The notes below the pieces were generated by a model, which saw only the letters and a program-made list of their open reading frames with translations, had not been told where the DNA came from and ran no database searches. Shown here in pieces: positions 9,284 to 9,529 of a stretch of DNA of 44,551 nucleotides (position 1 is its first letter; the number at the start of each line of letters is the position of its first letter). Source of the DNA: an uncultured Bacillales bacterium (GTDB lineage Bacteria; Bacillota_I; Bacilli_A; RF39; UBA660); assembly GCA_946408655.1 (NCBI GenBank), contig CAMJTE010000002.1:1-44551 (forward strand). Reading direction: 5' to 3'. The position numbers were made by a program, and so were the translations under genes.

Positions 9284-9529
9284 ATGGAAAATGTTTTACA
9301 GGGGACAATAATTGCGATAGGTTCAATGCTTGGTTTAGCGTTCCTAGGTTTTGGTATTGGTATTGGAATAATGAGTGCCAAAGTTGCAGAAAGTGTTGGC
9401 AGAAATCCCGAAACAAAAGCTGACGTTGTTCATTCAGTTATGACAATTTTAGTTGTCGGTGCTGTATTTTTATTATTCTTATTTGCGTTTGTATTTTTCT
9501 TATTATTCTTTAATCCATTAACAGTATAA
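9284..9529 (+). CDS. F-type ATPase subunit c-like proteolipid lacking the ion-binding carboxylate
   Basis: An 81-aa two-helix hairpin with glycine motif GFGIGIGI and loop AESVGRNPE (compare the canonical c-subunit loop ARQPE). Helix 2 ([29 protein letters not shown]) contains no Asp or Glu. Confidence 0.75.

Follow-up and report, generated by a model that had tools for sequence, protein, structure and literature searches.

To our knowledge, in every F-type enzyme characterised so far it is the carboxylate of the c ring that makes this ring an ion turbine. Here we deal with an 81-amino-acid (aa) protein resembling subunit c (hereafter c-like) that has lost this carboxylate, and with the operon that encodes it together with F1-like subunits and very large surface proteins. 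It was found in a stretch of DNA of 44,551 nt (the window, which throughout means this whole stretch) from an uncultured Bacillales bacterium (RF39; UBA660; assembly GCA_946408655.1, contig CAMJTE010000002.1, forward strand, positions 1-44,551). Replacement of the carboxylate in a c hairpin is known: subunit c1 of Acetobacterium woodii carries Gln in its second hairpin, and the duplicated c subunits of V-type and archaeal enzymes have partly lost their ion sites. In all these rings, however, other hairpins keep the site and ions are still moved, whereas the c gene of the window operon is the only one there and encodes no ion site.

F1-derived enzymes that do not transport ions are known from mycoplasmas, where the F1-like X0 ATPases power gliding (Type 2, the G1-ATPase of Mycoplasma mobile) or the MIB-MIP system (Type 3); they are linked to effector proteins of the cell surface, and their presumed role is to pass force through the membrane, not to move ions (PMC3369863, PMC12994834). 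The mycoplasma clusters contain no homologue of c, a, b or delta, and their X0 part consists of one protein with 12 transmembrane (TM) helices, another that is small and cytoplasmic, and a third, large one carrying two TM helices at its C-terminus (PMC3369863); the Type 3 alpha-like subunit is also without the N-terminal helix that binds delta (PMC12994834). The window module resembles these systems in being an accessory, F1-derived set of alpha, beta, gamma and a short epsilon that is tied to surface proteins, the tie being in this case one of co-encoding; it differs from them in having a c homologue, a candidate b-delta-like stalk protein (P242) and the N-terminal segment of alpha, and in having no 12-TM protein. 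The N-ATPases (atpDCQRBEFAG), in turn, represent a laterally spread second F-type operon that stands beside the housekeeping enzyme. They keep subunit a and ion-binding c subunits (PMC2881411), and their gene order is unlike that of the window, which runs c, stalk, alpha, gamma, beta, epsilon.

Sequence comparison shows the 81-aa protein to be truly derived from the F-type c subunit in its Na+-type, Firmicute-like form, a homology that we regard as established. Similarity to ATP-synt_C, on which the initial annotation had staked its reading, is significant: residues 10-74 match this Pfam family (PF00137) with 30.7 bits against a gathering threshold of 24 (E-value 3.7e-7); phmmer against the sequences in PDB ranks A. 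woodii c1 first (8e-9), ahead of A. woodii c2/3 (7e-7), the c subunit of Ilyobacter tartaricus (3.5e-6) and that of spinach chloroplasts (9e-6); and hhalign pairs the c-like family with Escherichia coli AtpE at a probability of 95%. The protein does stay under every NCBIfam subunit-C equivalog cut-off, its top score being 37.8 bits against 71 (NF005363). The hairpin layout, the helix-1 glycine zipper and the polar loop by which it had originally been picked out are all present, the zipper as GFGIGIGI (residues 22-29, with the motif G22xG24xG26xG28) and the loop as GRNPE (residues 39-43), extended to G39-R-N-P-E-T-K45. The same elements recur in the Na+-type and chloroplast-like c subunits of A. 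woodii (c2/3), I. tartaricus and spinach, which are likewise single hairpins of about 81 aa with GxGxGxG, R-(Q/N)-P-E and NP(F/L) motifs, and an Asp seven residues past the loop Arg is common to the c-like protein, I. tartaricus c and A. woodii c2/3. The GRNPE loop by itself is not diagnostic, since ordinary c subunits that combine it with the Glu exist among 50%-identity representatives.

What, then, occupies the place of the ion-binding Glu? The initial annotation described the second helix as free of Asp and Glu and put either Ala or Gly at the carboxylate position. The first statement holds, residues 48-76 containing zero acidic side chains and Asp47 being the last acidic residue of the protein; of the two residues proposed, Ala is the right one and Gly is not. 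Helix 2 runs without a gap against the c subunits in PDB from the R-x-P-E loop to the C-terminal N-P-(F/L), and the distance from loop to NP(F/L), counted on the PDB alignments, is 37 residues in the c-like protein, in I. tartaricus and in spinach, so that the carboxylate column is unambiguous. In this column Ala60, and no acidic residue, stands opposite the ion-binding Glu of A. woodii (vaEtt), I. tartaricus (vaEst) and spinach (fmEal), Gly59 being the residue before it. The further contrast to canonical c subunits is that Ile27, Val61, Phe62 and Phe65 face Q32, S66, T67 and Y70 of I. tartaricus, which we take to be its Na+ ligands.

On these alignments neither the membrane carboxylate nor any other ion ligand is left, and this is true not of one protein only but of the whole family. 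A search of 5.8 billion proteins returned 1030 clusters (90% identity) at E-values of 1e-3 or lower; in the best 120 of these clusters nearly all proteins are 81 aa long, with 67-99% identity to the c-like protein of the window. Column 60 holds Thr in 79, Ala in 31 and Ser in 3 of 113 ungapped 81-mers, and Ala, Thr, Ser or Val across 75 distinct sequences from 84 loci (80 GTDB loci that were kept and 4 separately fetched contigs); in neither set is it ever acidic. In column 59, next to it, acidic residues occur in only two sequences, as a Glu (in the set of 113) and as an Asp (locus L054 in the set of 84 loci), and the mid-membrane columns 27 and 59-65 are otherwise apolar or hydroxyl only. 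By contrast, G22, G24, G26, G28 and the whole GRNPETK loop are invariant both in 35 aligned sequences and in the 75 locus sequences. That the gene might be a decaying relic or an annotation artefact without function would be a natural suspicion once the site that defines its canonical function has gone; conservation, however, has effectively refuted it already, as the family comprises more than 1000 clusters at 90% identity, has 35 invariant columns, shows the top conservation within its operon (see below) and has retained an intact reading frame at every locus examined.

The c-like gene belongs to a conserved, syntenic module of 11 genes (Table 1), which in the window are ordered G1, P478, c, P242, alpha, gamma, beta, epsilon, TM175, P239, G2, all on the plus strand. 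These co-directional genes overlap or abut, as illustrated by the c-like stop codon, which overlaps the ATG of the P242 gene (TAATG), and no terminator-like site was found between positions 1800 and 16000. The gene order is identical on the contigs that carry a 78%-identical c-like homologue, and the whole 11-gene order is kept from RF39-like Bacilli to Lachnospiraceae; the versions found in Clostridia also carry TM175-like and P239-like open reading frames (ORFs). Alpha, gamma and beta lie 3′ of c at 70 of the 72 loci with enough downstream sequence. The median identity to the window proteins is highest for c (69%), followed by beta (62%), alpha (60%), gamma and epsilon (46% each), P478 (33%), P242 (31%), TM175 (30%), P239 and G1 (28% each) and G2 (26%); by this measure it is the carboxylate-free c that is the most constrained protein of the module. 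This setting also bears on the idea that the c-like protein is a 'spacer' within the ring of a housekeeping F1Fo enzyme, where it would lower the ion/ATP ratio in the manner of A. woodii c1. The best PDB match is indeed that very subunit, in which Gln replaces the Glu of the second hairpin, but the c-like protein is a single hairpin entirely without a site, and in 70/72 loci it comes with a dedicated set of genes for alpha, beta, gamma, epsilon and the stalk, which makes such a role very improbable. A rearranged subclade (for example L071:9208-15283, as well as L038, L044, L051 and L068-L073) displays the order P239, c, P242, alpha, beta, epsilon, TM175, gamma and has no G2-like giant gene downstream within the sequence fetched.

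Table 1. Features of the 11-gene module in the window, in order of position
Feature	Position	Strand	Length (aa)	Description and basis
G1, giant surface protein	2510..7819	+	1769	N-terminal signal-anchor helix; at least one fn3 domain (Pfam 1.8e-8)
P478, single-pass membrane protein	7829..9265	+	478	Large extracellular part; fn3 2e-4, sub-threshold
Shine-Dalgarno-like GAGGTG	9274..9279	+		4 nt 5′ of the c-like ATG; read from the sequence
c-like proteolipid ORF	9284..9529	+	81	ATG start, TAA stop
P242, candidate b-delta-like peripheral stalk	9529..10257	+	242	Fold model, Foldseek, hhalign
alpha-like subunit	10267..11598	+	443	Pfam ATP-synt_ab 2.4e-69
gamma-like subunit	11591..12358	+	255	Pfam ATP-synt 6.1e-24, 85.7 bits against a threshold of 39.9
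beta-like catalytic subunit	12363..13706	+	447	Pfam ATP-synt_ab 8.1e-65
epsilon-like subunit (tentative)	13703..13942	+	79	Position after beta; length of the N-terminal beta-sandwich only
TM175, polytopic membrane protein	13944..14471	+		About 5-6 helices
P239, single-pass membrane protein	14487..15206	+	239	Predicted extracellular domain; conserved in the module
G2, giant surface protein	15223..24630	+	3135	TM helices at both ends

The head that would sit on such a ring is predicted from its motifs to be catalytically competent. The beta-like subunit retains the catalytic motifs and a DELSEED-like motif, and its Walker A, catalytic Glu, Walker B and LGI-ELS elements are conserved to at least 95% among 69 distinct sequences; the alpha-like subunit, the C-terminal domain of which is shortened, keeps the P-loop GDKKTGKT and the Arg finger SVSRLGG, with GDKKTGK and SVSRLGG likewise conserved to at least 95%. 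Both subunits attain their top scores on F0F1 models, yet they remain under the equivalog cut-offs, alpha with 411 bits against 554 on the NCBIfam F0F1 alpha model and beta with 446 bits against 463 on TIGR01039 (atpD), and the same is true of gamma (58.6 bits, equivalog cut-off 194). All three exceed the thresholds of their Pfam domains. The alignment of alpha starts at model position 8, that is to say, its N-terminal segment is retained. On the alt_F1F0 models of the N-ATPases, alpha and beta score 344 against 750.5 and 390 against 752; on the mycoplasma models MSC_0618/0619 and MMOB1660/1670 the scores and cut-offs are 396/570, 298/520, 373/850 and 367/600. Since alpha and beta thus stay below the cut-offs of the F0F1, N-ATPase and mycoplasma models alike, they form, as far as profile scores can tell, a separate F1-like lineage. 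The accessory proteins of the module matched no NCBIfam family and are unrelated to those of the mycoplasma systems, and the module belongs to neither the Type 2 nor the Type 3 family because the X0 proteins are absent from it and because c and a delta-like protein are present.

The 79-aa protein encoded after beta can be called epsilon-like only tentatively; its family profile finds bacterial epsilon and mitochondrial delta chains in PDB, weakly, at E-values of 0.5-1.4. At four loci the alpha-like protein bears a C-terminal extension of about 200-550 aa (L031:11011-13500, L033:3938-6889, L054:8817-11489 and L088:1051-3003), which in L033 and L088 is acidic, rich in Pro, Glu and Val and of low complexity; the alpha-like protein of the window has no such extension.

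If there is a rotor, is there also something to hold the head against it? With moderate confidence, P242 can be read as a candidate b-delta-like peripheral stalk. In its AlphaFold2 model, which has a mean predicted local distance difference test score (pLDDT) of 78.9, an N-terminal TM helix extends into one long helix spanning residues 2-66; a linker of low confidence leads to a helical bundle (92-192), and the C-terminal part (197-241) is of beta structure. When the model was compared with PDB by Foldseek, the top 20 matches were all F-ATP synthase chains (E-values 0.03-0.9), the best having an E-value of 0.03 and a probability of 0.77 and none being significant singly. They include chains from Acinetobacter baumannii, yeast, bovine and Trypanosoma brucei enzymes, and, going by chain labels and lengths (for example E. 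coli 6oqr_W and Bacillus PS3 6n2y_I), we take these matches to be delta/OSCP. Mycobacterial chains (7njs_d and others) are among the matches too and presumably represent the b-delta fusion. At the level of sequence, hhalign pairs the C-terminus of P242 (IKT-YD--I-EGI-I-Y-NKLYDYSI) with residues 133-166 of E. coli delta (E-value 0.012, probability 3.7%). The likeness to the mycobacterial b-delta, in which an N-terminal membrane and stalk helix is joined to a delta-like domain in one polypeptide, is suggestive only, as P242 has 242 aa as against a modelled chain of 437 residues, and the similarity in sequence is confined to the delta C-terminal motif. As a homologue of b by sequence P242 was rejected, with E. 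coli b unmatched and chloroplast b matched in the profile search of PDB only at a non-significant E-value of 1.9. The protein itself is a regular member of the module, detected by a hidden Markov model at 78 of the 80 GTDB loci.

The other half of a canonical Fo would be subunit a with its Arg, and here the operon, by the profile searches made, is without a subunit-a homologue and without a conserved membrane Arg. ATP-synt_A matched none of the operon proteins and none of 29 members of the TM175 family. TM175, being polytopic, was considered as a divergent subunit a and rejected: its family (a homologue search with TM175 returned 4 proteins) has a mean column identity of 29% and is well conserved only at G44, F46, Y124, F144 and Y151, with no conserved Arg; the TM175 profile matched nothing in PDB; and hhalign assigned a probability of 0.1 to the pairing of the family with E. 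coli AtpB. In four Clostridia species TM175 is fused to P239 within single ORFs of 402-417 aa (L024:13332-14549, L026:14904-16121, L074:14902-16155 and L019:14927-16135), the TM175 domain spanning residues ~1-187 and the P239 domain ~163-417; these fusions argue for a joint role of the two proteins across the membrane. A second P239-like paralogue follows each of the fusions.

With the carboxylate gone from c, and subunit a gone together with its Arg, both halves of the Fo ion path would be missing. Could ions still be pumped through a non-canonical site, composed for instance of residues towards the cytoplasmic side of helix 2 (D47, H50, S51 or T54)? These four residues are conserved in the RF39-like subfamily, but they align with D52, S55, T56 and L59 of I. 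tartaricus, that is, 6-13 positions before the Glu column and on the cytoplasmic side; in other branches H50 is replaced by Q, R or S and T54 by V, I or F; and neither the apolar or hydroxyl side chains in mid-membrane nor the searches for an a-like half-channel protein or a conserved Arg provide what such a pump would need. We consider it decidedly unlikely.

To what might a non-conducting ring be connected? The module encodes four surface proteins. A homologue of G1 (1700-2370 aa, ~28% identity) occupies the same position at 55/80 GTDB loci, P478 lies directly upstream of c at 62/80, and G2 homologues are found 3′ of the ATPase genes at 41/80, many being truncated where the 10-kb flank ends. 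G2 has TM helices at both ends, so that some 3000 aa of it would be located outside the cell; between residues ~1600 and 2300 it contains GG(I/L)(A/V/I)G-type repeats resembling GLUG (Pfam Glug, 20.0 bits against 20.5). Comparison of G1, G2, P478 and P239 with Pfam and NCBIfam yielded only fn3 and the borderline GLUG, and no gliding, MIB/MIP or myxobacterial family; nine P478 homologues matched no Pfam family, and PADLOC, run on P478 and the eight proteins from c through P239, reported no defence system but just a trivial P-loop match.

The strict co-encoding of the ATPase with surface proteins of 1700-3100 aa may suggest that it is dedicated to their export or assembly, in analogy to the FliI/FliJ use of an F1-like ATPase, and alpha and beta do score on FliI/SctN models as well. 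Their scores on F1 models are, however, far above these; all four surface proteins begin with ordinary N-terminal signal-anchor helices, which we assume to be Sec-compatible; and we know of no export role for a c ring or a peripheral stalk. An export ATPase thus strikes us as improbable.

The reading that we prefer is that the module encodes an ATP-hydrolysing machine that rotates, or at any rate generates force, whose Fo is degenerate and does not conduct ions, and which performs mechanical work on surface proteins; we put its probability at roughly 55%. It would be built from an alpha3beta3 head, a shaft of gamma and short epsilon, a c ring and a P242 stalk, with no subunit a. The glycine packing motif and the GRNPETK loop of the c-like protein would preserve ring assembly and docking of the central stalk, respectively; hydrolysis of ATP would drive rotation of gamma, epsilon and the c ring relative to P242 and TM175/P239, which would together form the stator; the c ring would serve as a purely hydrophobic rotor or bearing; and the work would go to the membrane-anchored G1, P478, P239 and G2 and not to an ion gradient. 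That the c subunits form a ring, that this ring rotates and that it is coupled to the surface proteins is what we infer from the parts. Ring packing, the loop that binds gamma and epsilon, the shaft, the stalk and the catalytic sites, all of them needed by a rotor-stator machine, have been retained under strong selection. The original suggestion that the ring might act as a rotor or anchor under an ATP-hydrolysing head gains from the catalytic motifs conserved to at least 95%, from the lack of subunit a and its Arg, and from c being the most conserved protein of the module. To that suggestion the analysis adds the 11-gene module with its giant surface proteins, the candidate b-delta-like stalk and the wide spread in gut Bacillota.

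Several observations weigh against this reading. The tie between the ring and the four surface proteins is only one of co-encoding, and a hydrophobic ring that spins freely and unloaded would waste ATP, which makes coupling the least supported step. The assignment of epsilon is weak; the delta/OSCP matches of P242 are consistent but singly non-significant (Foldseek E-value 0.03; hhalign probability 3.7%); and the AlphaFold2 model of TM175 has a pLDDT of 49, so that by structure a very divergent a-like fold could still be accommodated.

A variant without rotation should be considered in this context: the c ring might be a static membrane anchor, above which the head would send push-pull conformational changes to its membrane partners, a mechanism proposed for the G1-ATPase of M. 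mobile (G1 being in this case the name of the enzyme). This is in keeping with the missing ion-driven interface of the ring and with the failure to find an a-like stator among the operon proteins. In F-type enzymes, the rotor set and the stalk serve the rotation of rotor against stator, and it is precisely these components, gamma, epsilon, the invariant c loop and a b-delta-like stalk, that are all kept here, which speaks against a static ring. Models of the mycoplasma F1-like ATPases, for their part, have force passed across the membrane without a c ring (PMC12994834). On balance, we regard a static anchor as rather unlikely, too.

A bolder version of the rotary machine that we favour can be offered only as a tentative possibility, less probable than the general reading above: the module could be a hitherto unrecognised ATP-driven rotary motor of Gram-positive gut bacteria, in which a carboxylate-free ring passes torque to giant extracellular proteins, with motility, adhesion dynamics or surface remodelling as its output. 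The torque might, for instance, be handed on by TM helices lodged in or against the c ring; published structures of V-ATPases have Ac45 and PRR sitting inside the c ring. In evolution, such a motor would be intermediate between F1Fo and the c-less F1-like X0 enzymes of mycoplasmas.

What is the significance of a site-less c subunit that is nevertheless the best-conserved protein in an operon encoding F1 and a stalk? It would mean that rotary architecture has been reused beyond chemiosmosis. Because the c homologue and the stalk are kept, unlike in the mycoplasma X0 systems, the module may also show how such motors originated and how force is transferred across the membrane. In the full-text literature that we searched, neither this module nor any family of F-type c subunits without the carboxylate is described, although such an account may exist elsewhere, and judged by this literature the module is a previously undescribed, F-type-derived accessory ATPase.

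Among gut Bacillota the module is common: in the species genomes of GTDB, at least 172 matching stretches were confirmed. The hosts among the matches listed are, on the one hand, RF39-like metagenome-assembled genomes (MAGs) labelled 'Bacilli', 'Mollicutes' or 'Tenericutes', with Ca. Scybalousia, Ca. Coprovivens and Mycoplasma sp. CAG:956 among the host MAGs, and, on the other hand, Clostridia, namely many MAGs of Lachnospiraceae, MAGs of Roseburia, Butyrivibrio, Agathobacter, Mobilitalea and Lachnoclostridium, and Family XIII. The samples came from human (including Hadza), rabbit, ruminant and chicken sources. Two hosts bear culture-type strain designations, Kineothrix alysoides KNHs209 and Ca. 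Merdisoma sp. HCP28S3_D10, so that the idea of a non-conducting rotary machine should be testable by genetics, biochemistry and cryo-EM.

In the databases of NCBI and JGI, the c-like homologues go by names such as 'F0F1 ATP synthase subunit C' and 'F-type H+-transporting ATPase subunit c', and on the strength of such names a proton-translocating ATP synthase may be wrongly ascribed to RF39-like and other reduced genomes when their metabolism is reconstructed. The organism from which the window derives (about 25% GC, genetic code 11) is probably cell-walled, since the window encodes a penicillin-binding protein with PASTA domains and a polysaccharide deacetylase.

Some minor observations concern relatives of the c-like protein and the surroundings of the module. 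An exhaustive search of 50%-identity representatives turned up five distant single hairpins (P0220, P0223, P0241, P0251 and P0269; 35-46% identity) in which helix 2 is also acid-free and which could represent additional lineages without the carboxylate; when P0241 and P0251 were targeted in a metagenome scan, only more members of the window-type module came up. Directly after G2, positions 24722-26092 of the window encode a 456-aa protein with sigma-70 regions 2 and 4 and an N-terminal extension of about 170 aa that matches nothing; this sigma-70-type protein may be a dedicated regulator. Further downstream, a DUF975 membrane domain and a 'putative ABC-transporter type IV' domain of the CmpB type share one 600-aa ORF (29226-31028), which adjoins a VanZ-like protein and an SH3-bearing polysaccharide deacetylase.

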